32,000 nt of DNA from Candidatus Saccharimonadota bacterium (GTDB taxonomy: Bacteria; Patescibacteriota; Gracilibacteria; BD1-5; UBA6164): contig CP042461.1 of NCBI GenBank assembly GCA_004563595.2, forward strand, positions 270,001-302,000. Reading direction: 5' to 3'. The translations under genes and the position numbers were made by a program. A model generated the notes under the pieces. It made no database searches, was not told where the DNA came from, and worked only from the letters and a program-made list of their open reading frames with translations. The first letter of the stretch is position 1. Each line of letters begins with the position of its first letter. Shown one piece after another: positions 1 to 32,000 of this stretch.

Positions 1-2
1 CT

Positions 3-983
3 CAGTGAGACACCAGTTGTGAACTATCATCTCTGAGTAATACAAATAACACTTATGATTTCACATCTGAGATTTGATGAGTATGTGATGCAGGGATCAG
101 CAGCCAATGATACATTTGGAGGTTTTATAATGAAACTACTGGAGAAGAGATAAAAAAATATTGAGAGTACCTTGATAATTATAGATTTCTGAGTTCTTGA
201 ACTTGGAAAGTGTTTTTAAGGGTAGTTGATAACTGTGGGAATACTTGAGAAGTTTATAATATGTTGAGTATTGGACTCGATAATCAAGATAATAATACAT
301 GAGCTGAGAATAACACATGATCAGGTAGTGATATATGATCAGATAATAATTCGTTAAATGTAACGATAGATGTGAATCCTATATTCTGACCTGGTCCATT
401 AAATATAGATTTAGAATGATTGGTGTCATGATGAGAATGACCATATTCATATGAATGGAATTATTGAGATGGAGGTGGCTGATTTGGAGAAAATGTAAAT
501 TATATTTTCATAAATGAATGATCATATACCGTTATATTACAAGTAACTGATAAGGATTGAAAAATTTGATATGCCAGTGTTTGAATTCTTGTAAAAGATT
601 TAGGAGATATAAATACCGATAGTGATGGTGATGGAGTCAGTGATATTTTAGATAGTTGTCCACTTATCAACTGAGCACAAGAAAATAATGGTTGTCCAAT
701 CTTGGATACCATTTGTCAAAGTGATTCAAACTGTTCTTCTGGTTACTATTGTAAAGAGAGTAATAATAGCAAAAATATATGCGTTCCTAAAGAGGTTTCA
801 AATAGTTGTGTTTATGATTGATGAACAACGTTTTTCTGAAATGCTGTTTGTAATAGCTGTCCTTGTGGAAATTTCTTAGACTTCAATGCTTCATTGAGAA
901 ATTGTGATGTCATATTTCCAGCGATCACATCAAAGGATGGAACAGAAATCTACAGTAAATGAAAGAACTATTTAATAAAATAA
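3..983 (+). CDS. Secreted or surface protein, C-terminal part (5' end lies outside the window). Contains PKD-like repeats, a thrombospondin-type-3-like Ca-binding repeat and a Cys-rich tail.
   Basis: Frame 3 is open from nt 3 to TAA 981-983 only if more than 20 in-frame TGA are read as sense. Motifs seen: YEWNYGDGGGGFGENVNYIFINEGSYTVILQVTDKDG (PKD-like) and DSDGDGVSDILDSCP (TSP3-like). A hairpin terminator follows. Confidence 0.75.
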
Positions 984-1009
984 AAAAGATTCCTAATGGA
1001 ATCTTTTTT
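984..1009. terminator. Bidirectional intrinsic terminator shared by two convergent genes
   Basis: Stem aaaagattcc / ggaatctttt with loop taat, flanked by an A-run and a T-run. It overlaps the 3' end of the minus-strand CDS. Confidence 0.7.
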
Positions 1010-1721
1010 ATTTTCTAAAACTTTCTAATATTTCATGAGCAATTTGTTTTCAACCGAGTCAAAATGCAAGTCCTCAAGCGATAGTCAGCATTGATATGAA
1101 TCATACAAGAATAGTATTTATGATAAATGTATCAACTATTTTTGTATAGTTTAACACAAGCATAAGCGTAAAAAATAGGATTATTATTTTTGCACCACTG
1201 GCAATGATTCTACTTGTTTTTTGTTTGGTTAGGCTGAGAGTGTGATAGACAACATCATACACAAAGTTTGCAAATCTAATACCAAAGAATCAGATGATAA
1301 CTCAGATGAAAAGGCTCGGGAGGTATGCGAGTAAGTCTCATAGAAATACTTCTACTTCTTTGATTCAGATTACAATGATGGCAAACCTGAAGAATGCTAG
1401 GAATATATAGTATGAAATAGATCTTGCCGCGATTTCGTCTATTTTTACCTTTTGGCTGAGTTTTTTAGGAGCTGTTTTTTCTGACTCTTTTTTATCTTTA
1501 TCATGCTCTTCATCAAACTTGAGGGTGATTCTATCAATAATATCTAGTATATTAAATTTTTTGAAGAGATATTTTACAAATTTATGGATCGCAATTGATA
1601 TAAGGACTCAAAAGGCAAGTATGATCAGGGCTCATATAAATTTTGGGAGATAGAGCTCTATATTTCAGAGTATTACGGTGTAGAGGTTGTTTATTATTTT
1701 GTCTATATCAAAGTTAAACAT
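1008..1721 (-). CDS. Membrane protein with conserved TM-helix repeats (MscS-N-terminal-like). Function unknown.
   Basis: ATG at 1721-1719, TAA at 1010-1008, 237 aa in table 25 with several TGA=Gly. Hydrophobic segments present. C-terminal ...LAFGLGGKQIAHEILESF resembles the 'conserved TM helix' family. Confidence 0.7.
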
Positions 1722-1790
1722 AAGTATTTTCTTGAAAATATTAAGGTATATATACAGGATACCACAAAATCAAAAAAAGCAAAAATAAAT

Positions 1791-1818
1791 TTGACTAAAA
1801 ATCAATATTTCATATACT
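1791..1818 (+). promoter_or_regulatory. Sigma70-type promoter for the tRNA(UCA) gene
   Basis: TTGACT (1791-1796), 16-nt spacer, TATACT (1813-1818), about 55 nt upstream of the tRNA 5' end. Confidence 0.5.
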
Positions 1819-1874
1819 CACATCTGCAAATATTTGAGTGATTGCGTGTCGTTTTTACCAAAATATCTGTCTGA

Positions 1875-1953
1875 GCGAGGGTAACATAAAAGAGTGAGTG
1901 TACTAAGGCTTCAACCCTTGGGTGTGCGAGTTCAAACCTCGTCCCTCGCTCCA
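1875..1953 (+). tRNA. tRNA-Gly with anticodon UCA, the decoder of the reassigned UGA codon. CCA is encoded.
   Basis: Acceptor stem GCGAGGG/CCCTCGC. T arm GCGAG-TTCAAAC-CTCGT. Anticodon stem TAAGG/CCTTG with loop CTTCAAC (anticodon TCA at 1911-1913). Discriminator T at 1950, then CCA. G1:C72, C2:G71, G3:C70 and U73 match bacterial GlyRS identity elements. Short 5-nt variable loop. The D arm is atypical (no GG). Confidence 0.85.
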
Positions 1954-2034
1954 ATAAAAAATTTAAATCAAAAAAGCCTCTATTTAATTAAAAATAGAGG
2001 CTTTTTTGATTGTCAAAATTGAGTTCGATAATTC
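1950..2034 (+). repeat. Copy A of a repeated intergenic module (A-rich leader, terminator hairpin, GAT(T/G)GTTCA... tail). It starts at the tRNA 3' end (TCCA).
   Basis: TCCAATAAAA...AAAAAAGCCTCTATTT..AAATAGAGGCTTTTTTGATTG... aligns with copy B (3121-3222) from the first base. The hairpin and tail are also shared with 5878-5943 and partly with 2591-2645. Confidence 0.6.
1975..2007 (+). terminator. Intrinsic terminator after tRNA(UCA)
   Basis: agcctctattt / aaatagaggct hairpin followed by a T-run. Confidence 0.8.
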
Positions 2035-2127: not shown

Positions 2128-2155
2128 TAAAAAAATCTCCGTAAGTTATACGGAG
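2128..2155 (-). terminator. Intrinsic terminator (minus strand) overlapping the stop codon of the small membrane protein gene
   Basis: ctccgta / tacggag stem. The A-run at 2128-2135 is a T-run on the minus strand. Confidence 0.7.
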
Positions 2156-2367
2156 AGTACTCTTATTAATATGAGCATTAATGCTGATAGACACATCGTA
2201 ATGAGTGAATATTTAGCATATTTAAGGGCACTTTGATTATCAGAGTATTGGTATACTCCTCCAATAAAAGTTACATGCATCCAGCTACAGCCATAGAAAA
2301 ATATCGCAGACAGAGCAGGTATTATAATACATAATAGAAATAGCGTAAGCCATACAAAATCAGGCAT
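2146..2367 (-). CDS. Small hydrophobic membrane protein (73 aa). TGA-free with a strong SD.
   Basis: ATG at 2367-2365 preceded by AAGGAG 8 nt upstream. The longer track ORF starts at a TTG. TAA at 2148-2146. Two predicted TM stretches (MPDFVWLTLFLLCIIIPALSAIFFYG...). Confidence 0.6.
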   Translation of the reverse strand: MPDFVWLTLFLLCIIIPALSAIFFYGCSWMHVTFIGGVYQYSDNQSALKYAKYSLITMCLSALMLILIRVLSV

Positions 2368-3120: not shown

Positions 3121-3222
3121 TCCAATAAAACAATTAAATAAAAAAGTCTCTATTTTTAATTAAATAGAGGCTTTTTTGGTGGTTCAATAGAGTACTAAAA
3201 TTAGTTAAAAATTGGTATATGC
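3121..3222 (+). repeat. Copy B of the repeated module. Includes the csaA-like gene terminator (hairpin 3145-3172, T-run to 3177).
   Basis: TCCAATAAAACAATTAAATAAAAAAGTCTCTATTTTTAATTAAATAGAGGCTTTTTTGGTGGTTCAATAGAG... The first ~65 nt are about 85% identical by eye to the tRNA 3' flank (copy A). Confidence 0.6.
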
Positions 3223-3340: not shown

Positions 3341-3373
3341 AAAAAAAGAGGAGAATACATATTGTATTCTCCT
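3341..3373 (-). terminator. Intrinsic terminator (minus strand) after the NhaA-like gene
   Basis: aggagaataca / tgtattctcct hairpin. The A-run at 3341-3347 is a T-run on the minus strand. Confidence 0.75.
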
Positions 3374-3382
3374 TGTTTATAG

Positions 3383-4636
3383 TTATGTTCATGAATATTT
3401 TCTTTCTTCAGGAACAAAGTTTTCAACTGTATCAATTGTCTTATTTAAGAGATATGACAATGGTACAGTCAGTAAAAAACCAATCTTCATTTGAGCCGCT
3501 ATTTCTAATGGGATTAACTCATTTGTTTGTGCTACTGAGACAAAAATTATTGCTACAGTACCGTTGCAGGCCCCGGCAATAGCCATGCTTAAAAGAGACA
3601 TTTTATTAAGTTTATTTTTACCGTAATCAGAGTTAGGATCTACATATCTTTGACAAATCAGGCCTCCAAAGTAAATACCAATTAGTTTTCCTCCAAAACC
3701 ACCAACAAGAGCTATGGTTGTAAATACTCCCCATGATAGAGGATCGAGTACATTAATACTCCCTGCTACAAGAGCAAATGGGAGTAATAGCCATAATGCA
3801 AGTGATTCTGTTTTTTCAATTACTAGCTGTTTAACATTATCAGGTGCAAAGATCATCGGAAGACACCCACCTAGAATTGGCTCAATACCATTAAAGCCTA
3901 GAAGGGATGTATTAAAGATGCAAAGAGTGACCCAGAAAGTCGGTGATTGAATAGTAACATCATATGTTTTTCGACCTATTATTTTATATGTTTTTTGATC
4001 TTTCTCTTCCTCTTCCTTGAGTTCTGTTACAATGACAGGACTAAATTTACCAAAAAAATAGGCAACCATCAGGACAAGCAAACCAGGAATAGAGAGGGTT
4101 TGTATCTGTTCTACTCCTTGAGAAAATAATCCAATCATGGAAATAATCCCTAGAAGATCATCACCAACAGCTAACATCGTTAGTGCACTTATCATTACAG
4201 TAGTTGATATATTTTTTGCCATTTTTGCTGAGCCTATTGCCATTGGTACATCAGTTGCCATACTTCCAGCAGATGCATATAATGCTACAGCTAATCCTAT
4301 ACCTCCTATAAAGTAAGCAAGAGAAGTTGTTAATATGAGAGGAACAATTACACCTCCTAATATAGTACCAATAATCAGAGGTCCAGCTTTTAAAATATCA
4401 TTAACTTCAATTTCAGCACCTAGTCGTAAGAAAAATACCCATAAGCCAGTAAGCATCATCCAAAAATGCACAGTTGGATGATGTATTACATGAGTGTATG
4501 TTTCTCCATACTCTCCAAAGAAACCATTTTCACTCAAGCCGTAAACGATGAGTGAAAAGATCAAAAAATAGATAATAACGGGTATCTTAGAGTCCAATAA
4601 TACAATCCCTTTTTTTTTGTCATTTGTATGTAACAT
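3383..4636 (-). CDS. Na+/H+ antiporter, NhaA-like (divergent). TGA-free, probably acquired.
   Basis: 415-aa standard-code ORF ending in TGA (3391-3389). In table 25 it gains two residues (G,T) and stops at TAA 3385-3383. NhaA-like motifs: FFLRLGAEIEVNDIL, SMATDVPMAIGS, VGDDLLGIISMIGLF. About 40 Gly codons, none of them TGA. SD GAGGGA upstream. Hand-counted stretches are G+C-richer than neighbouring genes. Confidence 0.75.
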
Positions 4637-4931
4637 AATTTTCCCTCATGTTTTTGTTTGTGTTTTGATTTTTAGCGAGTGCATTTATATATTAATAATG
4701 ATTAAAGTCAATTTTTTTCCTTACATTCTAGTTCAAAGCGAATAATTAATTGAAAAACCAATAAGGATATTCATAATGGGAGTTGCTTAAATCTTAAATC
4801 ATTACAAATGTCTCATAAACAGTTTACAGAAGAAAATATATATGTATATAATCGAAAAAAATGATCTTTTTTGACTGTTACCCTATTATATGATAAACTA
4901 AATATGAATTATATATATAACAGTTGCTATT

Positions 4932-5877: not shown

Positions 5878-5943
5878 CAAAAGAGCCTCTATTTTTAGTT
5901 AAATAGAGGCTCTTTTGATGATTCGATAAAATTCGAAAAATAG
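5878..5943 (+). repeat. Copy C of the repeated module. Includes the terminator of the preceding gene (hairpin 5882-5913).
   Basis: AAAAGAGCCTCTATTTTTAGTTAAATAGAGGCTCTTTTGATGATTCGATAAAATTCGAAAAATAG shares the hairpin and the GATG.TTC..TA tail with copies A, B and D. Confidence 0.6.
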
Positions 5944-6026: not shown

Positions 6027-6557
6027 ATGAAAATCGCATTACAAAGAATAACAATAAATTCACCAGTAGATAAAGTTTGGAAAGTACTCAGTGATGATTT
6101 TGTTGCCGTTAGTATATGGATGGCTGCTATTAAAATATCCGAAGAAATTACAAAAGGTACAAAAGTATCAGGCGCTCCAGTAATAGGGAGAAAATCCATT
6201 ATTTGAGCGGTAGAGGAGGGGAGATCTTTTCTAGAAGAGACTATTACGGCATATGATGAAAAAAATAAATCTCTTACCGTGAAATCTGTACTGAAAAATA
6301 ACTCAAATTTTTCACCTATGATATCATATACCAGTATAATTACGGTAAAGAAAATAGATGAAAATACTTCAGAAGTTATATGGGATGGATCAGCTGAATT
6401 ACAACTATTAGGTTATCCTATGTATTTTCTTGTGAAAAAATGATTAGCTGCGTGATTTTATAGAGGGATAGAAGAGCTACAACATTTTATGGATACTGGA
6501 AAGCCTCATCCACGTAAAATAGCATTTTTAAAAAAATGGGGAATGTCAGTAAAATAA
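6027..6557 (+). CDS. SRPBCC/START-like (polyketide cyclase-dehydrase fold) protein
   Basis: 176 aa in table 25: MKIALQRITINSPVDKVWKVLSDDF...VIWDGSAEL... This is the typical SRPBCC N-terminal pattern. Three TGA=Gly. TAA at 6555-6557. Confidence 0.7.
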
Positions 6558-6657: not shown

Positions 6658-7041
6658 ATGAAAATAGGTGAAATATCAAATATAACAGGAGTGACACGTG
6701 ATGCTATTCGACTGTATGAAAAGATGTGACTTATAAAAAGTCAAAAAAGTAATCAGTTTAGCAATAATTATAGAGAATACGATGAAAGATGTTTAGAACG
6801 AGTGAAGGCTATAGTAAATATGAAAGATATAGGAATTAAGCTTAAAGAGGCAAAAATTATATTTGATGCTATGTCAGGAGGAACTTTTGATGCTAAATTC
6901 AGGGCAAATTTTGTAGAGAGTAAGCTTGAAGAAATTGAGGAAAAAATAGAAAATCTTCAGAAGTTTAAAACCACTATTTTAGACATGTGAAAAATAGACT
7001 GTGCCGGTGAAAACGCAGAAATAATAGAAAAAATGAAATAA
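6658..7041 (+). CDS. MerR-family transcriptional regulator
   Basis: MKIGEISNITGVTRDAIRLYEKMGLI... (MerR HTH) followed by a coiled-coil dimerisation helix. 127 aa. TGA=Gly at the conserved 'E..GL' position. TAA at 7039-7041. Confidence 0.85.
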
Positions 7042-7116: not shown

Positions 7117-7452
7117 CTATTTGTTTGCATTAATTTGAATCGCTTGTTTGATATAATACTCAAGAGCTTGAGTATTCATTTGCTTTAGAGCTAATACCCT
7201 CATGGCTTTTCCTCATCATGTAAGGAGGCCAAGCTCATCACTCATTTTTGCTCCTTTTAAAAAACCAAAATCAATTCCATATGGCATTGTTCTCATATGA
7301 CAGATACCACCATTATTATTTGAGTAGGTGGTAATTCTGTCTTTTTTTGTTTCTGTTATGTTTTCAAAGGAAAGAAGAAAATCCCTTGCCTCTAGGAATA
7401 GGTTTTTATGTTCTGATAGTAGATCTGTATCAAATTGCATAGTTATTTTCAT
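7117..7452 (-). CDS. DUF1801 (YdhG-like) family protein
   Basis: Track ORF 7216-7452 extends through TGA-TGA-GGA (GGG) to TAG at 7119-7117, giving 111 aa. The pattern ...ICHMRTMPYGIDFGFLKGAKM...GGGKAMRVLALK... resembles DUF1801. Confidence 0.6.
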
Positions 7453-7617: not shown

Positions 7618-7923
7618 ATGATTATATATAAATTTAATACGGAGCGAGAGTATGCTATGTATTATGTAAATAAACTGAATGATAGCAGAGTATTGAAGAT
7701 TTTAAAATCAGGAGAGGTACATAGTAAAGAGGATGCACTTTGTTTAAGTGAGTTTTTTTGGAACATGGTGGGTGCTTCAATTCAGGATAAAAAAGCTGGG
7801 CTTCAGTTTCCTTGGGAAGGAAGTGCAGAATTTTGGGAAGAAAAATTGATGAATTCATTTTCGTTTTACTTGGAGAGGGAAGGTTATGAGAAGGAGTGGG
7901 ATGAAGTGGTTAATAGAGTGTAG
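7618..7923 (+). CDS. Hypothetical protein (101 aa), Trp/Glu-rich, TGA-free
   Basis: Intact standard-code ORF ending in TAG and followed by a hairpin terminator. All 5 Gly codons are GGN. No family recognised. Confidence 0.6.
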   Translation: MIIYKFNTEREYAMYYVNKLNDSRVLKILKSGEVHSKEDALCLSEFFWNMVGASIQDKKAGLQFPWEGSAEFWEEKLMNSFSFYLEREGYEKEWDEVVNRV

Positions 7924-7931: not shown

Positions 7932-7962
7932 AAAATAAAAAAACCGAGTTTAGCTCGGCTTT
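7932..7962. terminator. Bidirectional terminator between convergent genes
   Basis: ccgag / ctcgg stem (7944-7958) flanked by an A-run on the left and ctttt on the right. Confidence 0.55.
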
Positions 7963-7990
7963 TAATAAATATTCTTTGTTTTATAACCAT

Positions 7991-8203
7991 TTAAATGAGT
8001 TTTCGCATTAAAGTTATATTTGTTTTTGTATCTTCAATACGGGCTTCAATTTCTTTTATTTGTTCTTCTGCTTTATCTCGCTTATCTGGAGTTAAATTCG
8101 TTACTCCTTTTTTGCTTTTAGAAAGTAATTTTTCATAGAAACAGAGTTCGGTTTCTATTTCTTTTATATTAGCTTCTATAGGTGTTAATACCTGATTTTC
8201 CAT
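7991..8203 (-). CDS. Hypothetical small coiled-coil protein (70 aa), TGA-free
   Basis: Track ORF 7991-8266 begins at a TTG that overlaps the upstream gene. The first ATG (MENQVLTPIE...) is at 8203. Charged heptad-like sequence. Ends in TAA. Confidence 0.5.
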   Translation of the reverse strand: MENQVLTPIEANIKEIETELCFYEKLLSKSKKGVTNLTPDKRDKAEEQIKEIEARIEDTKTNITLMRKLI

Positions 8204-8237: not shown

Positions 8238-8531
8238 CTATAATACAGTACTAATTTTTCTTTCAAGTATTATCTGAGTACTTTTAGGAAAAAGAGGGTC
8301 TTTTCTTAATTTTTTAGCAAAAGCTTTTGCTTGTTTTAATGCCTCTTCTTCTATATCTTTTAAGATAGCATTTTTTTCAGGGACCCTAACACTCTTTGAT
8401 GTTAGTTTGTTAGTATATTTTGAATCAAAGGAAAGCACTTTTTCTCTATTTTTGAGTGCACCTAGTTCAAAATCTTCTTGTTTTTCTGGATAGGAAAAGA
8501 CTATTATATATTCTGGTATTTGATATTTCAT
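8238..8531 (-). CDS. Hypothetical protein (97 aa), TGA-free
   Basis: Intact ORF with the SD-like AAGGAAAG 7 nt upstream of the ATG, and a strong promoter further upstream. No family recognised. Confidence 0.6.
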   Translation of the reverse strand: MKYQIPEYIIVFSYPEKQEDFELGALKNREKVLSFDSKYTNKLTSKSVRVPEKNAILKDIEEEALKQAKAFAKKLRKDPLFPKSTQIILERKISTVL

Positions 8532-8581
8532 TATCAGCTTTCCTTTTTTGTTTTATAAGTATATTTGTTACCTATGACTTG

Positions 8582-8609
8582 ATTATAAAATTATTTTTAT
8601 ATAAGTCAA
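8582..8609 (-). promoter_or_regulatory. Sigma70-type promoter for the 8531->7991 minus-strand operon
   Basis: On the minus strand: TTGACT (8609-8604), 16-nt spacer, TATAAT (8587-8582). Confidence 0.6.
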
Positions 8610-8673
8610 TCAATTATATGTTAGCTCTGATTTTATTATCATAATTCAATATTGCACCCGATAAATCTTGAGC

Positions 8674-8706
8674 AAAAAAAGCCCCTCACGTGATAACGTG
8701 AGGGGT
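8674..8706 (-). terminator. Strong intrinsic terminator (minus strand) with no protein gene upstream of it
   Basis: GC-rich hairpin cccctcacg / cgtgagggg. The A7 run at 8674-8680 is a U-run on the minus strand. Confidence 0.75.
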
Positions 8707-8795
8707 GAGATAAAGACTTTCTATATACCATGGAATCTTATCTAGGGGGAACTAGGTTTGTCCCACTTGTATATTACCATAGAAAGTCAGCAGTA
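8674..8795 (-). ncRNA. Candidate structured small RNA ending at the 8674-8706 terminator
   Basis: 10-bp closing stem GACTTTCTAT (8715-8724) / ATAGAAAGTC (8779-8788). Internal hairpin GGGAC/GTTCC on the minus strand. No ORF. The 5' end and promoter were not identified. Confidence 0.3.
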
Positions 8796-8846
8796 TTATT
8801 CTTTTGTACTAAACTTTATTGCGATCAACTCATTCATACTCCATAC

Positions 8847-8868
8847 CTAAATATATTAATAGGAGATG
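8847..8868 (+). repeat. 22-nt direct repeat, copy 1
   Basis: CTAAATATATTAATAGGAGATG matches 8973-8994 at 20 of 22 positions, 126 nt apart. Confidence 0.5.
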
Positions 8869-8972
8869 ATTCATATTTCTTTTAGCGATAGAGTTTCAAT
8901 CTTGATTTTATTTTTGTATCGGGAAAGCTTTATACTTATTTTTATGTAAAAGTAAAATTTTTTGTAGACTAG

Positions 8973-8994
8973 CTAAATATATTGATAGTAGATG
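8973..8994 (+). repeat. 22-nt direct repeat, copy 2
   Basis: CTAAATATATTGATAGTAGATG. It contains TTGATA, which is followed 17-18 nt later by TAAAAT (promoter-like). Confidence 0.5.
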
Positions 8995-9066
8995 CAGGAG
9001 AGTCTTAAAATAATATATGGAAACTGATTATAATTTAGAAGTAAGGACATCAGTCATTAAACTTAA

Positions 9067-9099
9067 AAGGCTAACCGATACGGTTAGCCTTTTTGTTTT
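9067..9099 (+). terminator. Intrinsic terminator (plus strand) in a non-coding region
   Basis: aaggctaaccg / cggttagcctt hairpin followed by TTTTGTTTT. The only upstream ORF is a 27-codon ATG ORF that runs into the hairpin. Confidence 0.7.
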
Positions 9100-9374
9100 G
9101 TAATTTTCAGATAGAGATAAGTCCATAAATGTTATACTAATGGAATGCTATCGGTTATTGTAACGTTATAAGAGTCTAGATTATTTAATGTTTCACCTAT
9201 TCTTTTGAATTCATTACTAGATGAAAACATATTTTTTGTTAAATAACAGAACACATTTTGAGAATCTGTATCCTAACAAACTTGGGAAAACCCAACAATA
9301 GTATTTAATATTATTGTTACTATAAGGTTAGAATTCTAAATTTTATAGGAAAAATTCTTCACTACCAAACCAAA

Positions 9375-9402
9375 ATATCCGGCAATAGCCGGGTATTTTT
9401 TT
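9375..9402 (+). terminator. Intrinsic terminator (plus strand) in a non-coding region
   Basis: atatccggc / gccgggtat hairpin followed by T7. No upstream ORF longer than ~26 codons. Confidence 0.7.
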
Positions 9403-9514
9403 GTCATTTAAAATCATAGACCTATAATAATAAGCCATAAAATAAAATGAATTGACAAAACTTGAAATTCCTTATTATTATATAATAAATACATTTTTTA
9501 TTAACCAAATAGCT

Positions 9515-10025: not shown

Positions 10026-10307
10026 TTAAGTTGATACCTCTGTTAAGGAATTATCTATTTTTTTTCTGCTTGAAATGAACATTTCCATAGCACAGCCTAA
10101 TACTGTCGAAGCACTAACGATTAGAATGCACATATTAAAAGCTTGTTCTGAGTATTCATTGTGTGATACTAATAGTGTAACTAGCAGAGCTGTAATAGCT
10201 ATGAAAGTAAAAAGGTTTCGAGCATATTTTAATAAGCGTATTGCCATGTCAATCTCCATTTGAGAAAAAAAAGTATTATCCTTACTAATCAATAATTCGT
10301 TTACCAT
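10026..10307 (-). CDS. Small membrane protein (93 aa), TGA-free
   Basis: Intact ORF ending in TAA. Two hydrophobic helices (FTFIAITALLVTLLV, NMCILIVSASTVLGCAMEMFI). Confidence 0.55.
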   Translation of the reverse strand: MVNELLISKDNTFFSQMEIDMAIRLLKYARNLFTFIAITALLVTLLVSHNEYSEQAFNMCILIVSASTVLGCAMEMFISSRKKIDNSLTEVST

Positions 10308-10364
10308 TTCTTTTGAAAAATAAACTTACTATTGTTAGTGACGTAATTATATCGTTTCTTTAAT

Positions 10365-10410: not shown

Positions 10411-10465
10411 ATTTATATTTAATATTATATAGTTACATAACAAAAGTAGAAAGGAGTTCTACATT

Positions 10466-20950: not shown

Positions 20951-20995
20951 TATGTCTCATTATAAATACTATTATTAACAAATAATATTTAAAAT

Positions 20996-21727: not shown

Positions 21728-21754
21728 TTATTTTATTATATAATTTATACTATT

Positions 21755-22597: not shown

Positions 22598-22706
22598 GAG
22601 AATAATATGCAGATAAAATAAATGTGAAATAATATGATTTTTGAATATAATGGAATTCTTCAATATAACCAAATGTAAGAAAACTTAATTTTTTTTATTT
22701 AAAATT

Positions 22707-24803
22707 ATGTCCATATTCATATTATTCCACATTATTTTTGTCAGTGCACTATTTTTATTGTGATTTTTTGTTTATAAAAAATATAGGCAGACAAGTGGGA
22801 TATTTTTCTTAAGCTTTTGTTTGCTTTTTTGAATTTGGTATATCCTCTATACAATCATCTATTCGGTACTTTTATGAGAATATTATACTCTCCATTTGAT
22901 GCGAATCATGTATGCAATGTCTTTTACTGCTATTTATAGCATGCTGTTTTTTGTATTATTTTTTAATGTAAATAAGAAAAAAACGAAGATAATTCGTAGG
23001 TGCATTGGTCTCTCCCTTTTTATGATATTTTTATATGTTTCAATGACATCTCTTTTTGTAGATCATATAGAGTATATTGAAAGTAAGGAATATTATTTGG
23101 AAGTCTATTGACCTTTATACAAAATACTAGCAACTTTATATCTTGCGTTTTTACCAATATTTTTTGTTGCATCTTATTACAAAATAAAATCTCTTACATA
23201 TATCAATAAAATGAGATTAAAATACATTTGTATTGGATTTACTTTATTTATGATTTTCTCTCTTTTATTTTTAATAATTTTTCCATTATTCTGAAAATTT
23301 TATTTTATTGAGAATATTATATTTTTTATAACCCCATTTATTGGTTTTACTTTTTATTCTACATATACGTATAGGTTCTCAGATGTAAAAGTTAAAATAG
23401 GGAGTATTTTAGTATTCTTATTGTCTGCTTTTTGGGCAATGGTAATGGTAAATTTAATAAATTATTTTTATAGTAATTTATGAGAAAATTATGCAGCACT
23501 ATGGGGACTTAACTCTAGTTTTTGAGCAGCTGAAGTATTATTAGGTATTCTTTTTTATATTCCATTAAATAAATATTTTAGTAATATTTTTTTAAAGAAT
23601 ATGAAAGGGGATAATTTTTGAAAAAGACTGTGAAGATTAAAAAAATCTATACCGTTTATTACAAACCTCTCAGATCTAAATTCATATTTATGAATAAAGT
23701 TATTAAAGTATTTTAGAATAAATAATGTAGAGGTAAAAATATTTAATAAAGATGAAAAGAAAAAGTCTGTAATATATAAATTTTTTTCCGAAAATACTTT
23801 AGATGATATTTTCCTCAATGAATTAGTGTTCATTGAGGAAAACAAACATAAGTTTAATTATTCTTTATTAAAAAATGAGATTGATGAAGGAGTTTTTTTG
23901 GTGTTCCCAATTTATGATAATAAGAAATGACTGATATGAATTTTTACACTTTGAAAGAAACCGTTTGGGGACTTATATTCTAATAATGAAATAAATCAAT
24001 TAAAGGAATTGATAGTATTTCTAGAAGGGCATTTAAAGTATATAAAAATTTATTGAAAAATAAATGATTTAACTGTGAATTTAGATAAAAAAATTGATGA
24101 GAAAACGATGGAATATAATAACCTTATCAATAAACAAAAAGAGTTTATTTCTATGATTTCTCATGAAATAAAATGACCGATAGCAAGTTCTATATTCCAG
24201 GCAGATTGTATACTTGATGATGTTGGGTCATGAGACTGTAGTAAAGAAGAACTTACAAAAGAGCTTACAATCTTAAATGAGCAACTTTTAAAATCATGAG
24301 ATTTAATTAACAAACTATTCTCTGTTCAATACTACGATTCAAATAGCTTTGACTTATTTAAAGAAGAGATTAATTTAGATTATTTATTTGAATGAGAAAT
24401 AGAAGTATACAAAAAACTGCATCCTCATATAGAATTTAGATTAGATATAGAAGAGGAGGTTTGATTTATCAGAATTGATAAAGTTCAGTTTAAACAAGTT
24501 ATTGATAATCTCCTTACTAATGCAGTAAAATTTATTACCCACGATAAGGGGAAAATTCATATAAACCTTTGCATGAAAAATAAGGAATTAATAGTTGAAA
24601 TTATGGATAATGGGAAAGGGTTTAAACACATAGATATAAGTACTATCTTTGATAAATATTCAACTTGAAAGACTTCTATGATTTGATTATGAATGGGACT
24701 ATATTTATGTAAAAGAATTGTGGAATTACATGGCGGTGAGATAAAAGCAAGTACGTCAAAAGAACTTTGATGAGCAAAATTTGAAATAAAGATACCAGTA
24801 TAG
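22707..24803 (+). CDS. Sensor histidine kinase with a multi-pass membrane N-terminus
   Basis: 698 aa in table 25. H-box FISMISHEIKGPIAS, N-box LLTNAVKF, G-boxes DNGKGF and GLGMGLYLCKRIVELHGGEI. Ends in TAG. Confidence 0.9.
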
Positions 24804-24816
24804 TATTTTTTAACAT

Positions 24817-25527
24817 ATGAACAATATGAATATATTGATTATTGAAGATGATGTCTTTTTAGCTGCAAGATTAAAACAAGTTTTTGAAAAAAAAATTATA
24901 TCAAATAGAATAAAAATTGTAAATTCATATATAGATTTTATAGAAGAAATAAGTATTTTAAGTTCATATGATATTGTTCTTACTGATATAAAATTATGAA
25001 ATGAAAAACAAAAAAATTGAATCAATATAGTAGAAGTAATTCGTAGAAATCAAATCTCAATACCAATCATTGTTATGAGCTGCTTTTCAGATACGGATTG
25101 GATTGAAAGAGCATTTAATACCTGAGCAAATGACTATATAATAAAACCATTTCGATTAAAAGAATTAGAGCTCAGAGTGCAAAATTGGTTTAAAGCATAT
25201 TATATCCCATCACAGCAAAATACAGCTACAGTTCTGGAGTATTGAGGGCTATCATATAATATTGAAGTAAATGATTTTTTTTATTGAGAAGAAGTACTAG
25301 TACTGACAAAAAAGTCTAAATATATACTTTCTATCTTTTTTTCGAAACCCGATATTTTAATATCAGAGGATATCTTTATAGATAAAATATGGTGAGATGC
25401 ATTTTTAATAAAAGATAGAAACTTGCGAGTTTGTATGTTACGATTAAAAAGAGGATTGGAGCCATATTGAATCGATCATTGGATTATAAATATCAGATGA
25501 GAAGGTTATATTTTAAAAAAAACTTAA
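24817..25527 (+). CDS. OmpR/PhoB-family response regulator, cognate to the upstream kinase
   Basis: ILIIEDD, VLTDIKLG and KPF motifs, with a winged-helix C-terminal domain. The alternative start is ATG 24826. Ends in TAA at 25525-25527. Confidence 0.88.
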
Positions 25528-25613
25528 TTTTTGTACTTTAATACATTGATATTTTGATATTATTTCAAGAATAATGTATAATATATAATAATAGTATTTA
25601 AATAAATAAAAAT

Positions 25614-26162
25614 ATGTTAGAGAAAGAAATAAAGATATTAGATATAAATATTGATGAGGTGTGTAAAAAAATAGAAAAATTATGAGGTACCAGGACATTT
25701 GATGGAATTATACATGATGTATATTATGATTTTCCAAATGATGGAAAGAAACATAAGATGGAAGGGAATAAAAGAATGTTTAGAGTAAGGAAAAAATGAG
25801 AAACACATTTATATACTATAAAGAATAAGAGAAAAGATGTTGAAGAGGTAGAAAACGTTGTTGCAAAAGATGAACATGAAATGGAAATAACGGATGTTGA
25901 TAGTTTTACCGAAGTGTTAGAAAGATATGGAATGATCAAAACAAGGGAGAAAATAAAGTATAGAATCTCATATCAACTTGCTTGAGCAGAATTTGACATT
26001 GATAAATATGATGATATTCCTGCTATTCTTGAAATAGAAGAGGATAGTGATAAGAGTATAGAATTCTGGGTAAGAAGACTTGAACTGGATGCCTATGAAC
26101 AATTACTTGGATGATCAAGAAAATTATTTAAACATTATGGGGTTCCATATCTACATTTATAA
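25614..26162 (+). CDS. CYTH-domain protein (CyaB-type / triphosphate tunnel metalloenzyme)
   Basis: EKEIKILD (ExExK), ...MFRVRKKG..LYTIKNK..., KTREKIKYRI and AILEIEE follow the CYTH strand pattern. 182 aa. Confidence 0.8.
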
Positions 26163-26165
26163 TAA

Positions 26166-26196
26166 AAAAGCTATAAAATAATTTTATAGCTTTTTT
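26166..26196 (+). terminator. Intrinsic terminator
   Basis: aaaagctataaaa / ttttatagctttt hairpin followed by a T-run. Confidence 0.7.
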
Positions 26197-26204
26197 ATTA
26201 TAAA

Positions 26205-26222
26205 TGTAACACTTTTGTAACA
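26205..26222 (+). promoter_or_regulatory. Two direct TGTAACA boxes spaced 11 bp apart, upstream of the AdoMetDC-like gene
   Basis: TGTAACA at 26205-26211 and 26216-26222. This is the same heptamer as in the 20916-20950 operator cluster. Confidence 0.5.
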
Positions 26223-26303
26223 TAGAGTGGATATTATAAGAAGTGCACAAACGAAAGCACAAAAGTACGTATAATAAAATAAGACAAGACAAGGGGCAGG
26301 AAA

Positions 26304-27191
26304 ATGAATGCAGTACTAGAACGTCCACAACAAATAGCTGAGATAAAAATAAAAACAAATGAAATCATAGATTTAGCACCACAAATCTTGAGACAAAGAC
26401 TACGAATGGAAGGAAATTATTCTATTCAAGTTGATGGAGATACTGTTTCTAGGTATTTAAACAAATTATCAGAACTTTTAGGTATGGAGATTACTCATGG
26501 ACCTGAAATACAAAATGATGCGGAGATAATAAACCCTATTCATAAAGGTTTTGAAGGAATAATGATGATGTCTGGTGCAAGTACACATGCATATACTTGG
26601 GAATTAGGGAATTTCTTTTCCATTGATGTATATTCATGTAAATCATATGACATGTCGGCTATACTTGAATTCACAAAAATGTTTTTCGAAGTGACTCGGC
26701 TTCGATATCAACCAACGAATTCTCGTGATGGTACCAACAACTTGACTTTTGATAATAATCATGTAGAAAAAATGGCTAAATCAAATATATTTGATTTAGC
26801 CCCAAAAATATTGCGGCAACGGACACGAATAGAGGGAACATATGTAATTGATATTAGAAAAGATACTCTGAAAAAATATATGGTTGAATTATCTGAATTT
26901 TTAGGCATGCACATTACACATGGACCTGTTATTCAAAATGATGCAGAAATAGTCAGTAATCCAATACATGTAGGGTTTAAGGGTGTTATGATGTGGGCTG
27001 AGTCTGGTACACATGCATATACATGGGAGAAAGAAAAGTTTTTTTTAATTGATGTATATTCATGCAGCTTATATAATACTAAAATGGTGCTTGAATTTAC
27101 TAGAAACTTTTTTCAGGCTACCACAATTGGATATGAAGCAACGCATTCTCGTAATGGTCCAAATAATTTAACTATTATGCCTATTTCTTGA
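26304..27191 (+). CDS. Tandem-duplicated S-adenosylmethionine-decarboxylase-like (pyruvoyl-enzyme fold) protein. TGA-free, with a fossil TGA stop.
   Basis: 295-aa standard-code ORF. Two repeats (nt 26367-26747 and 26790-27173) share about 76 of 128 residues by hand alignment. Each carries THAYTWE....IDVYSC, which resembles ESH.(S/T)IHTWPE....(D)V(F/Y)TC of prokaryotic AdoMetDC. Glu-Ser is present only in repeat 2 (27000-27005). All 17 Gly codons are GGN. The TGA at 27189-27191 sits just before a terminator. Table 25 would extend the ORF to TAA 27261-27263. Confidence 0.6.
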   Translation: MNAVLERPQQIAEIKIKTNEIIDLAPQILRQRLRMEGNYSIQVDGDTVSRYLNKLSELLGMEITHGPEIQNDAEIINPIHKGFEGIMMMSGASTHAYTWELGNFFSIDVYSCKSYDMSAILEFTKMFFEVTRLRYQPTNSRDGTNNLTFDNNHVEKMAKSNIFDLAPKILRQRTRIEGTYVIDIRKDTLKKYMVELSEFLGMHITHGPVIQNDAEIVSNPIHVGFKGVMMWAESGTHAYTWEKEKFFLIDVYSCSLYNTKMVLEFTRNFFQATTIGYEATHSRNGPNNLTIMPIS

Positions 27192-27209
27192 ATTGCATAC
27201 ATGGAAAAC

Positions 27210-27246
27210 AAAAAAATACCTTACGTTTTAGTAAGGTATTTTTTTA
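27210..27246. terminator. Bidirectional terminator between the AdoMetDC-like and VTC genes
   Basis: ataccttac / gtaaggtat hairpin flanked by an A-run and a T-run. Confidence 0.75.
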
Positions 27247-28035
27247 TTTCATTTCATTTTTAATATTTTCAATTTCTTTCATTGTATCTTTAAATGTATT
27301 GTATTTTTTTGCAAGTCATGAATAGACGACTCAAAGCGAATACTTACTACAAGATTTTGCTTGTTTAAAACCATGTTTTTCCATTATCTCTAGACTTTTA
27401 CAGTTTGTTTCAAGAGATTTACTTTCGATAATTACAAGGTTTTTTAAATTTGTTTCTGATGCATCTTCATCTCTGAGATCAAGAGTCCTAATATCAAAAT
27501 CAATAGTAAGTCTTTCTCCTCATAATCTATCAACGAGGGTAATTCTTTTATATCTTGTTTTAATAGCAGGGAAGATCTTTGGAACCTTTACAGTACTATC
27601 ATACATACTTTGCCATACTCATTCGAAAAATCTTTTTTTTCATTTTGTCATTTTCCCGTGTTCATCACTTGGAAATTCATACCTATATTTACTTGTGATA
27701 CCATTTTCTTTTTGTTTATATTCAAAGAATGCAAGATCAGAATCTTTATAGAGTCTTGTTCTGACTTTTGTTCTTGCTTTTTGCTTATTTTCATGTTGAT
27801 TATAGAAAAAATAATCATCTGTATCCATATAAACATTATCGTATGAAAATACTTTTTTATCTACGATTTGCAAAACTTGAAAATTTTCTTTGAGTTCTTC
27901 TAACACTTCTGAAAATTGTTTTCAAGTGAGTAGAAATTTTCTATCAATTCTTTTTAAAAAGCTTGCTGACGCGTTTAATTCAGTCAGAGTGATAGATGAG
28001 AAATTATTTAATTTAGAGTCAAACGTTGTTGCCAT
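27244..28035 (-). CDS. VTC-domain (polyphosphate-polymerase-like, CYTH-superfamily) protein
   Basis: 263 aa in table 25. RIDRKFL, Y.N.YMDT, R.K.R.R.Y, EYK.K, RITL....ER.T.D, IIESK and SKYS follow the VTC/TTM strand pattern. It contains track ORF 27640-27906. Confidence 0.65.
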
Positions 28036-28139
28036 TTTGTATTTGTTTTAAAAAATAATTGTTTTTTTGTAAGCTAAGATGTCTTATATAAAAATTATAT
28101 CATATATATTTTTTTTGGTCAAAAATTTGAATACCTTTT

Positions 28140-29516
28140 TTATATTTTCATAAGTATGAAGTACATTCCTGCTGATATTAATCATGAAACGGGGAGTGTA
28201 ATTATCCATGCAAGAGCTATATTTTTGATCATCGCTTTTTCTATATACTCTTTATCTTTTCCTTTTTGTCTCTTGATATGTTCTCTTAATAATCATACTC
28301 AGAAAATTCACCCAATTGCAATATGTGTTGAACTTACTGGAAGTCATAATTGACTTGCAATGAGTACAGTAACAGCAGCAGATAACGCTACACAAAAAGC
28401 TCTAATTTGGTTTAATTTTGTAATTTCTCAACCAACTGTTTTAATTAATCTTGCTCAGAATACACTGAGTCATACTACAATTCATAATGCTCAGAGAATC
28501 ATAATCCACTTTTCAACTGATGCCTTTGATCATTGAATATGTTCAATCCCATTTCAAAATATATCATTAATTGCTGCAAGTGGTCAGATCGCATTTGCCA
28601 CATCATTTGCTCCATGTGCAAATGAGAGAAGTGCTACTGAACAAATGAGAGGGACATTAAATAAAGTATTAATAAAACTTTTTGAATTTTTAAAGTAAGA
28701 GGATTGTTTTTTATAATGGAGAATAAGAGCTATATAGACAAGTATTCAGATAACGACTCAAGCAAATAATGCAAAACTTGGAGTGATTATATTCGCTAAA
28801 CTTTCATTTGATTTTAAGAGGGGTTTTAAACCTTTTATTAAAAGGTATATTGAGAAAATAGCTGACATAAGTCATACATATACTGGAACCCATATTTTTG
28901 CAGCATCTCATCTGGATTCTTTCTTGAGAATATTTCTTCTGATAGAGAGTAATAATATTGCTGCTATAGTTCATCAGAGAACAGGAGATATGACCCATGA
29001 TGCTGCAATTTTTCCTACTACAATCCAATTTACAATTCAAAAACCATAAGAAATTATTCAGGCTCATAGGAGTGCTCATATGATAGAGTGAGTTGCTGAT
29101 ACAGGAGCTTTAAAATAGGTAGCGATATTAAGCCAAACAGCAGCTCATAATAACGTAGATAACATGATAGCAACTAAATCCATTTGGTTTGTTATTTGAT
29201 CACCGTTAATGATTCATCCTTTGATAGTATCTACAACATCTCAACCAGCAATGATGGCTCCACTTGCTTCAAAGATAGCTGCGATAATAATTGCTCAAGT
29301 GAGAGTGATAGCTTTTGATCATACTGCGGGTCACATATTATTAGCAACGTCATTTGCTCATATATTTATTGCCATATATATTCATAATATAGCTGCAAAA
29401 AAGAGGTAAAAACTTGTATTTCCCCCTTCCATAATATATACCCATGCAATTGCTCACAGAAGAAACACTGCTGCGATGATATATTTATAAACCTCTTTTT
29501 TTTCCACATTAAACAT
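28140..29516 (-). CDS. PiT-family inorganic phosphate transporter
   Basis: 458 aa in table 25. Duplicated GANDVAN..GP signature, PVSATH/PVSSTH motifs and C-terminal IALAWIITLPVSGLISA. More than 30 TGA=Gly. Track ORFs here are antisense or off-frame. Confidence 0.9.
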
Positions 29517-29578
29517 TGGTTCCTGCTTTAAAAATTAAATAATACTTAATTATGGTATCATACTAAAAAAATAATGTA

Positions 29579-29606
29579 CAAAAAAACCAAGGATTTTACC
29601 TTGGCT
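29579..29606 (-). terminator. Intrinsic terminator (minus strand) after murG
   Basis: ccaagg / ccttgg hairpin. The A-run at 29579-29586 is a T-run on the minus strand. Confidence 0.6.
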
Positions 29607-29640
29607 ATTTTGTAATAATATTTATAAAATATAATAAATG

Positions 29641-30711
29641 TTATTTTTTATCTATGTGTTCTTCAATGACCTGTAGTGGTTTGAAAAAGTTTTCTAAATT
29701 GAGTCCTGATTTTCTGAGATCTTTAAATTTTTGAAGAAGTCTGAAAAGTTCTAGATCAAGGTTATTCTCTTCATCAAGAATATTGCTTCAGAATTCAGAA
29801 TGGAAATATTCAGCATTTTTTAATTGATGATTTCAGGCACTATTTTTGAGAGGTATAATAATTGAGTGAATTCAAAAACTATTAAGTTCCCAGAGAGTAG
29901 TTGCTCATCATCTTGTTATTGCTATATCTTTATTTTTTAAGATTTTTCATAACCTTTTTTGGGTGATAAAGTCATGGACAAGAATGTTTGGAAATTTTTT
30001 GAAATCATCCCTCATCCACATATTCTTTTCTCAAAGAACTATATTAAAGTTTATGTCTTGTAAATCAGGAAGAATTGTTAAGAGGGTCTTGAATATAGTT
30101 GTTGATCATTGACTTCCGGCTATTATCATCACTTCAAGCTTTTCATTCTCTTCTATTTCTAAATCATCAAGGTAATCTAGTAACTCAGGGTTTAAAATTT
30201 GTCAGGCTACAATATATTTTTTATTATCAATTTTTTTATTTGGGAAAGTATAAAACGTTTTTGTTGCAACTTTTCAGATAATTTTATTTGCAATTCATGC
30301 TGTCATATCAGACTCATGAACATATATTTTTTTCCTGAGAATAAATGCTGCAATACAAAGAGGAAGACTTACATAGCCTCATTTTGAGAATACAATATCT
30401 ATTTTATATTTTAATATATAGAATATTCAAAACACAATTCATGAGAGATTTTTTAATGGTTCATAAAAATTCCTCAGATCAAAGTATCTTCTTACTTTCC
30501 CCGCAGGTATACTGAGAAATTTTATTTTATTTTTTGATGCTATTTCTTCTTCTAACGAATCTTCTTCTCAAACCCAGAAAAAATTATATTTTCGTTCCTC
30601 GTTTAAATAATTATATGTTGATAATAATGGAAAAACATGACCTCAAGTTGAGCCTCAAGTAAGAGCAATAGTTTGTTTAGAATTCAGGGTTTTATCAATA
30701 TGAGTACTCAT
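29641..30711 (-). CDS. murG: UDP-GlcNAc:undecaprenyl-PP-MurNAc-pentapeptide GlcNAc transferase MurG
   Basis: LTGGSTGGHVFP (G-loop; TGA at 30655-30657 and 30643-30645), GGYVS.P, AGSQGS, TRGGATT..E and N.Q..NA motifs. 356 aa. Confidence 0.9.
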
Positions 30712-30713
30712 GT

Positions 30714-31301
30714 TTAAAGTTTTATGTAATGTAATATTTTTATAATAAGCTTATTCAGTGATTTTACAAATTTTTGTTCTTTTAATAAATCTGTCATAAT
30801 GAAACTTGATATAAATCAAACCAAAATTCATCAAATAATATCAAATGGCCAATGGACTCATGCAATTATTCTAGAAATATTCATTAACAGAACAAATGGA
30901 AAAAATATGAGTCAGATCTTTTTATAACCTGCAAAGAATAATGAAAAAAGAAAAGCAAAGCTTACGGCTGCATGGTCTGAGGGGAAACTTGCATCAGGGA
31001 CATGGGAAAGTAATAACTTTCATACTCATTTTATAGCTTCTTCGGGTCTATCAAAAATGACTATTTGTTGAATAATCAGATTCATGATAATAGCAAGAAC
31101 AACAGAATAAAATATATTTAGTAACATTTCCTTTTTTTCATGTTGAGAATTAAAGTTATAAAAAATCCATGTAGATACTAAGAAGATTGGAAGGAAAAAT
31201 ATAGGAGCATCCGCAAAAATTCAAACCATAGATTCTATATTTGAATTTGAATTGAGAGAGTTCAGAAAAACAAGAAGGTCCTCATTAAATTTTTGTAACA
31301 T
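30714..31301 (-). CDS. PAP2-family phosphatase (undecaprenyl-diphosphatase BcrC-like)
   Basis: KxxxxxxRP-like motif, SFPSDHA and SRIIAGVHWPFD motifs. 195 aa. Its stop lies 2 nt upstream of the murG ATG, so they form an operon. Confidence 0.85.
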
Positions 31302-31451
31302 ATTTTAAGTTTATTTTAAGGTATTAAATTATACTAAAAGTCATTTTTAACAATTTAGCGTATTTCGTAAAATAATCAAGAAAAAACTTTCTATTTTATT
31401 AAAAAGCTTTATACTGAAGGGGACTTATTTTTTTATTACATTTTTTACTCT

Positions 31452-32000
31452 ATGTCCGATTATACTCCTTTAAAGTGAACAAAAGATTTATTTCCAGATG
31501 ATCATAAATACCTAACTTTCTTAAAGAAAGTTTTTCGTCATGAATTTCGTAAAAACTGATTTAGAAGAATTACCACTTCAGTACTTGAAAGTAATGAAAT
31601 TATAGGTGATGTTTTTTGAGAAAATACTGGAGGAATTTATAAAACAGAAGATGGATGTTTAAGATCTCATTCAGCAGTATGAATATTAAGAGCATATTTG
31701 AATGCAGAAATGAGTGAGGAGATTCAACCAGTATATTATTACTTTATGGATAATTATTTCTCAAATGGGGAAATGTGATATAATGAACTAGAAAAAATTG
31801 GTTGAGAAATAATCTGAGAAAATGATCCTATACTCGATGCCATTCTTATATATATTACTTATAGTATATTAAATAAAATTGGACTAGAAAATGATTTCAC
31901 TATCAGGATAAATTCTATTTGAATTGAAAAAGAAAAAGTAAAATATAGAGAAGAACTTATTTCTTTTTATGAAAATAAAAAACATTTATTATCAGAGAAA
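31452..32000 (+). CDS. hisS: Histidine--tRNA ligase, N-terminal part (3' end lies outside the window)
   Basis: MSDYTPLKGTKDLFPDD (KGTxD, Gly=TGA at 31476-31478), then ...FRRITTSVLE (motif 1 region) and LRSHSAVGILRAY (class II HisRS pattern). Confidence 0.85.

Follow-up and report, generated by a model that had tools for sequence, protein, structure and literature searches.

An altered genetic code is often called a barrier to gene flow, which raises the question of how genes that avoid the reassigned codon altogether come to sit on a recoded bacterial chromosome, and why they stay that way. We address it for nine TGA-free open reading frames (ORFs) in a 32,000-nucleotide (nt) stretch of contig CP042461.1 (positions 270,001 to 302,000; hereafter the window), most of whose genes use TGA as a sense codon. 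TGA-free genes are natural boundary cases: they would read correctly under both codes, some end on codons that look like earlier stops and that the host should now translate, and the largest of them, which encodes a divergent Na+/H+ antiporter, is present in both recoded Gracilibacteria and standard-code Gammaproteobacteria. The reading that we place first, though with about as much doubt as confidence, is that they are old cross-code imports in a standard-bacterial format whose UGA-free state persists, probably by selection.

Two Gene Formats in the Window

The window has a G+C content of 28%, and ORFs of at least 100 amino acids cover 13% of it under code 11 versus 79% when TGA is read as sense. 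TGA stands in frame in most genes, which assigns the window to a TGA-recoded (code-25) genome, and a tRNA with anticodon UCA lies on the forward strand at 1875-1950, as determined by ARAGORN, the Rfam tRNA model (45.4 bits) and its fold. The acceptor stem carries G1-C72, C2-G71 and G3-C70 together with discriminator U73, which we take to be the bacterial tRNA-Gly identity set; on this assignment, TGA is a glycine codon decoded by tRNA-Gly(UCA). The Rfam score comes from a local scan with a cut-off of 29 bits; a full-window scan at gathering thresholds returned no match, the tRNA included, which was evidently lost to filters in that run. The 415-residue product of the ORF at 3392-4636 is 100% identical to a protein on a 1.34-Mb contig of Candidatus Gracilibacteria bacterium 28_42_T64, which identifies the organism behind the window. 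Code 25 has likewise been assigned to this genome, from which prfB is reported to be absent, in a paper that makes no mention of TGA-free genes or Shine-Dalgarno (SD) usage (PMC6851277).

Across 28 ordinary genes of the window, TGA accounts for 308 of 540 Gly codons (57%), and none of the 27 scored for an SD has one, the call being anti-SD pairing of -5 kcal/mol or better, a threshold that about 9% of random ATGs reach. These figures bear out the preliminary description of the window, which held the code-25 genes to be SD-less with about half of their glycines encoded by TGA. It also listed nine ORFs without TGA (2146-2367, 3383-4636, 7618-7923, 7991-8203, 8238-8531, 10026-10307, 10466-10747, 10740-11102 and 26304-27191), all of which are present and contain no TGA between start and terminal codon. 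Six of them (2146, 3383, 8238, 10466, 10740 and 26304) are preceded by an SD (6/9 versus 0/27; Fisher P 4e-5), and anti-SD scoring agrees with the earlier finding of none or only a very weak one at 7618, 7991 and 10026.

The upstream regions differ in a second respect. Of 25 ordinary genes, 14 have a -10-like hexamer whose end is 0-19 nt from the ATG, 3-5 times the background rate per position, versus 0 of 9 TGA-free ORFs (hypergeometric P about 0.003, for a distance bin picked after seeing the data). A -10 box so close to the start implies very short or absent leaders without space for an SD, and several of the TGA-free ORFs (8238, 10026 and 10466) have canonical promoters located about 30-45 nt upstream of the start. 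SD usage, -10 box position and TGA depletion thus show that two statistically separate gene formats occur in the window, in line with the two gene populations proposed earlier. Leaderless or very-short-leader mRNAs are suggested to be the norm in the group, and by eye TATAAT-like boxes also stand near start codons in two standard-code relatives (L013 and L006). SD-poor translation is familiar from Bacteroidota, in which most genes are SD-less and a few keep an SD for regulation; the window resembles them in its dominance of SD-less starts with few strong SDs, but differs in that its SD-bearing set coincides with avoidance of the reassigned codon.

Taken singly, TGA-freeness is strongly significant only for two genes, the antiporter-like gene at 3383-4636 (0 of 40 internal Gly codons; P ~5e-14) and a tandem AdoMet_dc gene at 26304-27191 (0 of 17; P ~6e-6). 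ORFs 10740 (0 of 7; P 0.003) and 7618 (0 of 5; P 0.015) give smaller contrasts, and ORFs 7991, 8238 and 10026, with one Gly codon each, and 2146, with three, are singly uninformative. Pooled post hoc, the seven small ORFs have 0 of 22 glycines as TGA (P 3e-9); none of the seven has a Pfam match. In their non-Gly codons the window's TGA-free genes are nearly native, with a log-likelihood about 1 standard deviation below the native mean and a third-position G+C content (GC3) of 0.21-0.23 versus 0.19, and they are less native-like than pnp. An effect of membrane proteins as a class was considered and rejected, as native membrane genes are TGA-rich (PiT, 32/47; AI-2E permease, 16/23; gene 12445, 17/22).

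The Antiporter Gene in Recoded and Standard-Code Genomes

The antiporter gene lies on the reverse strand (3383-4636), spells all 40 of its internal glycines as GGN, and encodes a divergent Na+/H+ antiporter of the NhaA fold. Its score for Pfam Na_H_antiport_1 (PF06965; 21.6 bits) falls below the gathering cut-off of 23.5, many of its relatives carry precomputed PF06965 matches, and the family profile reaches experimentally solved structures of NhaA (E ~4e-4), bringing the TD, DD and K motifs into register. In the alignment to 7s24, MATDVP pairs with ATDIAF, AVGDDL with AIIDDL and GKvlGI with GKPLGI, in columns that are invariant in the family and presumably correspond to the catalytic T132/D133, D163/D164 and K300 of E. 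coli NhaA. The gene has a full set of standard-type signals on its strand: an SD (GAGGGA, 4642-4647) 5 nt upstream of the start, a promoter identified by eye (TTGACT at 4706-4711, TATAAA at 4684-4689) with a leader of about 40 nt, and a hairpin terminator at 3348-3374 directly after the gene. Its terminal TGA (3389-3391) is followed by ACA TAA and lies at most 2 codons from the homologous stop position.

We found 19 antiporter homologs, all at most 57% identical to the window copy, in a family so patchy that it occurs in 4 of 185,579 species representatives. On the standard-code side stand a tight gammaproteobacterial clade (L001, L003 and L009, in BamA, ZipA, Hda and PrfA contexts), a distant gammaproteobacterial copy (L011), L004, and L013, a pilus-encoding contig from an SD-poor genome. 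On the other side are six TGA-recoded lineages: the window, L007/L008 (with L019-21 and L024), L010, L012, L014 and L022/L023. Throughout the recoded lineages, the gene has 42-50 GGN codons and 0-1 TGA, among neighbours with 26-59% TGA that are mostly SD-less, and each copy has a well-spaced SD (GAGGGA, GAAGGGGGA, AAAGGGGAG, GAAGGAGGA, AAGAGGT or GGAG). A TTGAC...TATAAT-type promoter precedes the gene in all five leaders inspected among the recoded copies. The SDs of the gammaproteobacterial copies sampled are weaker than those of the recoded copies, and L013 has an SD at the antiporter gene only.

The gene also occupies a conserved chromosomal position. In L008, L010 and L012 it lies upstream of a small hypothetical gene and dnaK, and on its other side L008 and L010 additionally have LeuRS, a DZR protein and TrmD in common, with identities between the two of 77% for LeuRS, 71% for TrmD and 64.5% for the antiporter. 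The L008 contig (CAYVZQ010000002.1) is titled 'uncultured Candidatus Peribacteria bacterium' but is clearly TGA-recoded, its ORF coverage rising from 0.39 under code 11 to 0.88 with TGA as sense; either the record label or the assumed code may be wrong.

The AdoMetDC Gene and the Terminal TGA Codons

The second large TGA-free gene, on the forward strand at 26304-27263 with its tail included, encodes a tandem AdoMet_dc fusion with two stretches that match PF02675 (63.8 bits; cut-off 25), and has 17 GGN codons and no internal TGA. An SD-like AAGGGG/AGGAAA precedes it at 26291-26303, and beyond its terminal TGA (27189-27191) a 24-codon read-through tail overlaps the convergent VTC gene by 20 nt. 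Only two homologs were found among 5.8 billion proteins. The only one outside the lineage lies on a standard-code contig. On the sister contig L005, the gene is again convergent with VTC and PiT genes, which are 91-92% identical to those of the window, and it has no TGA within the domain and a terminal TGA aligned with that of the window. The two domains of the window protein are 58% identical to each other; by eye, domain 2 keeps the Glu-Ser pair of the self-cleaving site from which the pyruvoyl group forms (AES-GTH) and domain 1 (SGASTH) lacks it, so that the fusion may be a pseudo-dimer of which one half is active. The gene stands between CYTH and VTC plus PiT in a triphosphate, polyphosphate and phosphate locus (25614-29516), whose VTC/PiT arrangement is kept in L005.

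Three of the nine ORFs end on TGA (3389-3391, 10745-10747 and 27189-27191), and the read-through tails of 2, 6 and 24 residues given for them earlier are correct; the predicted junction peptides are ...ERKYSGT, ...KNDGKFIGK and ...TIMPISGIAYMENKK. A terminal TGA is found at or within about 2 codons of the homologous stop in the antiporter genes of the window and L010, and the AdoMetDC positions of the window and L005 are aligned. In L010, the sole TGA of the antiporter gene lies at most 1 residue from the TAA position of L008 and L012 and is followed by a 47-codon tail. From these positions we infer that the terminal TGAs once ended translation under the standard code and are now translated: since RF2 would be missing (prfB is absent from the 28_42_T64 genome; PMC6851277), stops that once served, or elsewhere serve, would be read as Gly and yield short C-terminal tails. 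Such predicted tails are directly checkable by proteomics. The 47-residue tail predicted for L010 (11210-11353) includes a hydrophobic stretch (GVFLLFLLIMILY) and could add a membrane helix to the antiporter.

Persistence of the UGA-Free State

At conserved Gly sites in native orthologs of L008 and L010, 46 of 80 are GGN in both, 9 are TGA in both and 25 are discordant; the antiporter gene has 38 such sites, GGN in both genomes without exception, with an identical-codon fraction of 0.34 between the two against a saturation expectation of 0.33. Limiting the comparison to at-risk GGA sites leaves 17 of 55 in the natives versus 0 of 18 in the antiporter gene (Fisher P 0.004). Both the conservation of the gene format across lineages and the contrast in Gly-codon turnover are shown directly. 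A first flux estimate (P ~1e-7 to 1e-11) was discarded as too optimistic, as at-risk GGA sites with gains only give P ~0.05. Protection of conserved glycines was rejected as the cause, since LeuRS has TGA at conserved Gly sites.

In the window copy, third codon positions are almost native (GC3 0.23 versus 0.19). An amelioration clock calibrated on native genes predicts about 39% TGA for it, and the probability of finding 0 in 40 is ~3e-9 with an ancestral GC3 of at least 0.49. Mutation to TGA does arise in this gene: over 1221 nt, the L007 and L008 copies differ by a single GGA to TGA change (L007 position 5803) in a Gly column conserved among the closest relatives of L007, and the TGA allele recurs in L021 and was seen in two samples. 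Amelioration of horizontally acquired genes is a classical concept, and several features of the window fit it, namely a codon signature atypical for the host, a gradient within one region from TGA-free through TGA-poor to TGA-rich genes, and a GGA to TGA polymorphism caught in the act. However, the window's third positions are nearly ameliorated while TGA is still at zero, and this state outlasts speciation accompanied by Gly turnover in native genes. The UGA-free state therefore goes beyond simple neutral amelioration.

The preliminary description had proposed recent acquisition from standard-code donors, and the link to standard-code bacteria in that proposal is supported, by the relatives of the antiporter, the AdoMetDC domain and ORF 7618, by the gene format and by the terminal TGAs. 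The recent date is not supported for the two large genes: the antiporter format is kept in six recoded lineages and the AdoMetDC terminal TGA is shared with L005, so neither gene is a recent arrival. Indeed, the nearest homologs of both include some from other code-25 genomes with the same features, an outcome that the description itself had named as speaking against its reading. In its full form, the proposal takes every one of the nine ORFs to be a neutral import of recent date, too young to have gained TGA, from standard-code bacteria or phages whose AT-richness would make the codon usage look native already. That explanation would account for the terminal TGAs as former stops and would find further support in the TGA depletion of the 5.9-11.7 kb region (8/37 in its TGA-containing genes versus 277/467 elsewhere; P 3e-6), which resembles a graded island, in a YopX phage-domain remnant adjoining the tRNA, and in the at-risk test, which in its conservative form reaches only P ~0.05. 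We nevertheless consider it unlikely, given that five other recoded lineages show the same features, that syntenic orthologs span an old split, that no homolog is above 57-61% identity to the window's genes, and that partial phage, plasmid and IMG/VR searches with the island and some of the ORFs returned no relatives.

Probable Selection and the Direction of the Proposed Transfer

Selection against UGA exists in these organisms, as dnaK of the recoded relatives is TGA-poor (0/30 and 3/57, or 0-5%); the dnaK genes lie at 12689-14593 in L008, 11968-13182 in L010 and 4206-6098 in L012, and avoid ATA and TTA. The antiporter gene of L008 and L010 behaves similarly, avoiding ATA, TTA and TGA and preferring C-ending codons. 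It might therefore be argued that no transfer took place and that the TGA-free genes are native genes under strong translational selection, with UGA avoided on account of slow or error-prone decoding by its one tRNA and an SD present to drive high or regulated initiation, the gammaproteobacterial copies having been exported from Gracilibacteria. The reduced TGA share of pnp (29% of Gly) agrees with such a view, as do the SD confined to the antiporter gene in the standard-code, SD-poor L013 and a neighbour-joining tree that nests the gammaproteobacterial clade (96-100% bootstrap) among the recoded lineages, on a backbone with 33-53% support.

Against it, the dnaK genes are SD-less with native GC3 and ribosomal protein genes are SD-less as well, the antiporter gene differs in GC3 and AAG usage from both dnaK and ordinary natives, and its codon usage is that of neither DnaK nor pnp; the window's TGA-free genes, too, are less native-like than pnp in their non-Gly codons. 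The L20, L35 and IF3 genes of L012 contain TGA, the antiporter family is very patchy, and in four genes a TGA coincides with the place where homologs stop, which is difficult to account for unless these genes were once read in the standard code. We judge an entirely native origin to be quite improbable. Simple high expression was likewise set aside as insufficient by itself, given the TGA codons of L20, L35 and IF3, the SD-less DnaK, and a TGA share in the window that is uncorrelated with codon nativeness.

A further explanation looks to mobile elements. The nearest published parallel is offered by phages compatible with code 11 and with predicted Gracilibacteria and Absconditabacteria hosts, described in a study that does not treat SD or promoter architecture (Liu et al., mBio 2023, PMC10746230): 34 of the 38 predicted Gracilibacteria phages lack in-frame TGA, with TGA stops backed by nearby stops, and dual-code function was proposed. 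By analogy, the window's TGA-free genes might be dual-code cassettes that belong to or derive from elements moving between recoded Gracilibacteria and standard-code hosts. They resemble the phages in being tied to a code-25 host, in lacking in-frame TGA and in sometimes having a TGA stop followed by further stops; with tails of 2, 6 and 24 codons, two of the three terminal TGAs are backed by a TAA, after 1 and 6 codons. Moreover, the full set of promoter, SD and terminator would work in a gammaproteobacterium, the antiporter gene has a gammaproteobacterial clade, and Colwellia co-occurs with the 28_42_T64 organism (PMC6851277).

The differences weigh more heavily, and we regard such cassettes as very unlikely. 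The window genes are chromosomal, scattered among TGA-rich genes and, in the searches run, without phage hallmarks or viral relatives, and the antiporter gene keeps a stable syntenic position in three genomes; integrated prophages are all TGA-dense (PMC10746230), and no design of back-up stops is seen where the tails run to 24, 43 and 47 codons. PHROGs gave an informative match for 1 of 10 proteins scanned, to the AdoMetDC family and to no phage hallmark; five IMG/VR queries, an INPHARED blastn search with 7.5-11.2 kb and a PLSDB tblastn search with ORF 10466 found no relatives. For the queries run, these searches lend no support to a phage or plasmid origin, and the only phage trace in the window is the YopX fragment, which contains TGA.

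Old cross-code import with a persisting UGA-free state thus remains the reading that we favour, and its steps may be sketched as follows. Most likely, these genes came into the recoded lineage from bacteria with the standard code, or are shared with them. In their standard format all nine lack in-frame TGA and six have an SD, while a -35/-10 promoter match with a leader of about 30-45 nt is seen in several, as is a hairpin terminator. Two reasons could then keep them UGA-free: the slowness of a path on which GGC or GGT must first become GGA before TGA can arise and, more probably, purifying selection against UGA in SD-driven mRNAs. Both transfer from standard-code bacteria as the direction and selection as the favoured cause of UGA avoidance are conclusions that we infer from the comparisons above. 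A more tentative possibility is that the conserved chromosomal UGA-free genes with canonical signals form a selected, UGA-independent expression class, translatable when tRNA-Gly(UCA) is limiting or disabled, as under stress or phage attack, or functional across the code boundary with gammaproteobacterial hosts.

Several observations weigh against this reading. The window is 32 kb of a 1.34-Mb genome. For the L008/L010 pair alone, the at-risk GGA test with gains only stands at the P ~0.05 given above; in that pair, the GC3 of the antiporter gene (0.46-0.49 versus 0.24-0.30 in natives) indicates that amelioration is unfinished, so a neutral lag is possible there. The amelioration clock is a rough model: it supposes that the ancestor was richer in GC and takes no account of the two steps needed to reach TGA. 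With the gammaproteobacterial clade nested on a weak backbone, transfer may have run in either direction, and TGA in L20, L35 and IF3 means that TGA-freeness is not predicted by high expression alone. Five of the small ORFs lack a detected homolog, four of them after a partial search or none, and in four of the small ORFs Gly codons are too scarce for a test.

As chromosomal genes that are SD-led, free of TGA and kept in several recoded lineages, they add a new twist to both code-11-compatible phages and amelioration. If their UGA-free state is selected, decoding of UGA would be costly or vulnerable in recoded cells, which bears on the evolution of codon reassignment and on the design of recoded organisms; the TGA share of Gly codons may also act as a rough residence clock for imported genes.

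Small ORFs and a Putative TGA-Depleted Island

Most of the small TGA-free ORFs lie at 7.6-11.1 kb, inside the TGA-depleted 5.9-11.7 kb, next to the TGA-containing genes behind the 8/37 count, and the TGA-poor neighbours suggest an accessory island of mixed ages. An intermediate class with TGA at 22-25% of Gly comprises SRPBCC (6027-6557, forward), MerR (6658-7041, forward) and a DUF1801-like gene (7117-7452, reverse), all TGA-poor and SD-less; a gene for a basic 111-amino-acid protein (11297-11632, forward) is also TGA-poor (1/8) and SD-less. The 101-amino-acid ORF 7618-7923 (forward, SD-less) has only two homologs, 57-58% identical and both on standard-code contigs with SD-like leaders, one of them adjoining a putative AbiC gene. 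On the reverse strand, 8531-8238 followed by 8203-7991 forms a TGA-free two-gene unit with an SD (AAGGAAAG) at 8538-8545, a promoter-like TTGACT-16-TATAAT at 8609-8582 and a bidirectional hairpin terminator 3' of the unit at 7939-7963. The adjacent 0.9 kb or so (8532-9450) has no convincing ORF, strong hairpin terminators at 8682-8705 (reverse), 9065-9093 (forward) and 9372-9399, and promoter-like sites, and may encode small RNAs or very small proteins.

The 93-amino-acid ORF 10026-10307 (reverse, SD-less) lies behind a perfect TTGACA-17-TATAAT promoter (10374-10346), and the pair 10466-10747 and 10740-11102 (forward) behind a promoter-like TTGACA-16-TATTAT (10401-10428). The first ORF of the pair has an SD (AAAGGAG) at 10450-10456 and ends on TGA; the second has an SD (AAGGAGAG) at 10728-10735, and the two overlap as ATGATTGA, an arrangement of standard-code coupling. 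For ORF 10740, 1.8 billion representative proteins were searched exhaustively without a full-length homolog being recovered. Together, 10346-10428 holds back-to-back sigma-70 promoters with 12/12 and 11/12 matches, a layout reminiscent of a small switch for regulation or of a toxin-antitoxin-like module.

Outside the island, the 73-amino-acid ORF 2146-2367 (reverse; predicted to be membrane-spanning) has a strong SD (AAGGAG, 2374-2379), despite which it may be no gene, as it is antisense to the YopX fragment (2006-2296). That fragment directly follows the tRNA, matches PF09643 (E 1e-9; profile positions 48-76 of 128) and contains three in-frame TGA codons; together with the tRNA, it resembles what is left of a code-25-adapted element that had integrated at a suppressor-type tRNA.

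Other Features of the Window

Ordinary genes fill most of the remainder. The block at 11717-26162 (rsmE, membrane proteins, trpS, pnp, an EAL-like gene, response regulators, a histidine kinase and CYTH) has TGA at 29-89% of Gly, is SD-less and has -10-like boxes near the ATG; VTC, PiT, murG, PAP2 and hisS (27244-32000) have TGA at 53-89% of Gly and are SD-less. Finally, a conserved palindrome some 45 nt long (AAAAAAGCCTCTATTT...AAATAGAGGCTTTTTT) recurs at 1966-2011, 3140-3178 and 5878-5917, after three transcription units, and looks like a REP-like family of bidirectional terminators.

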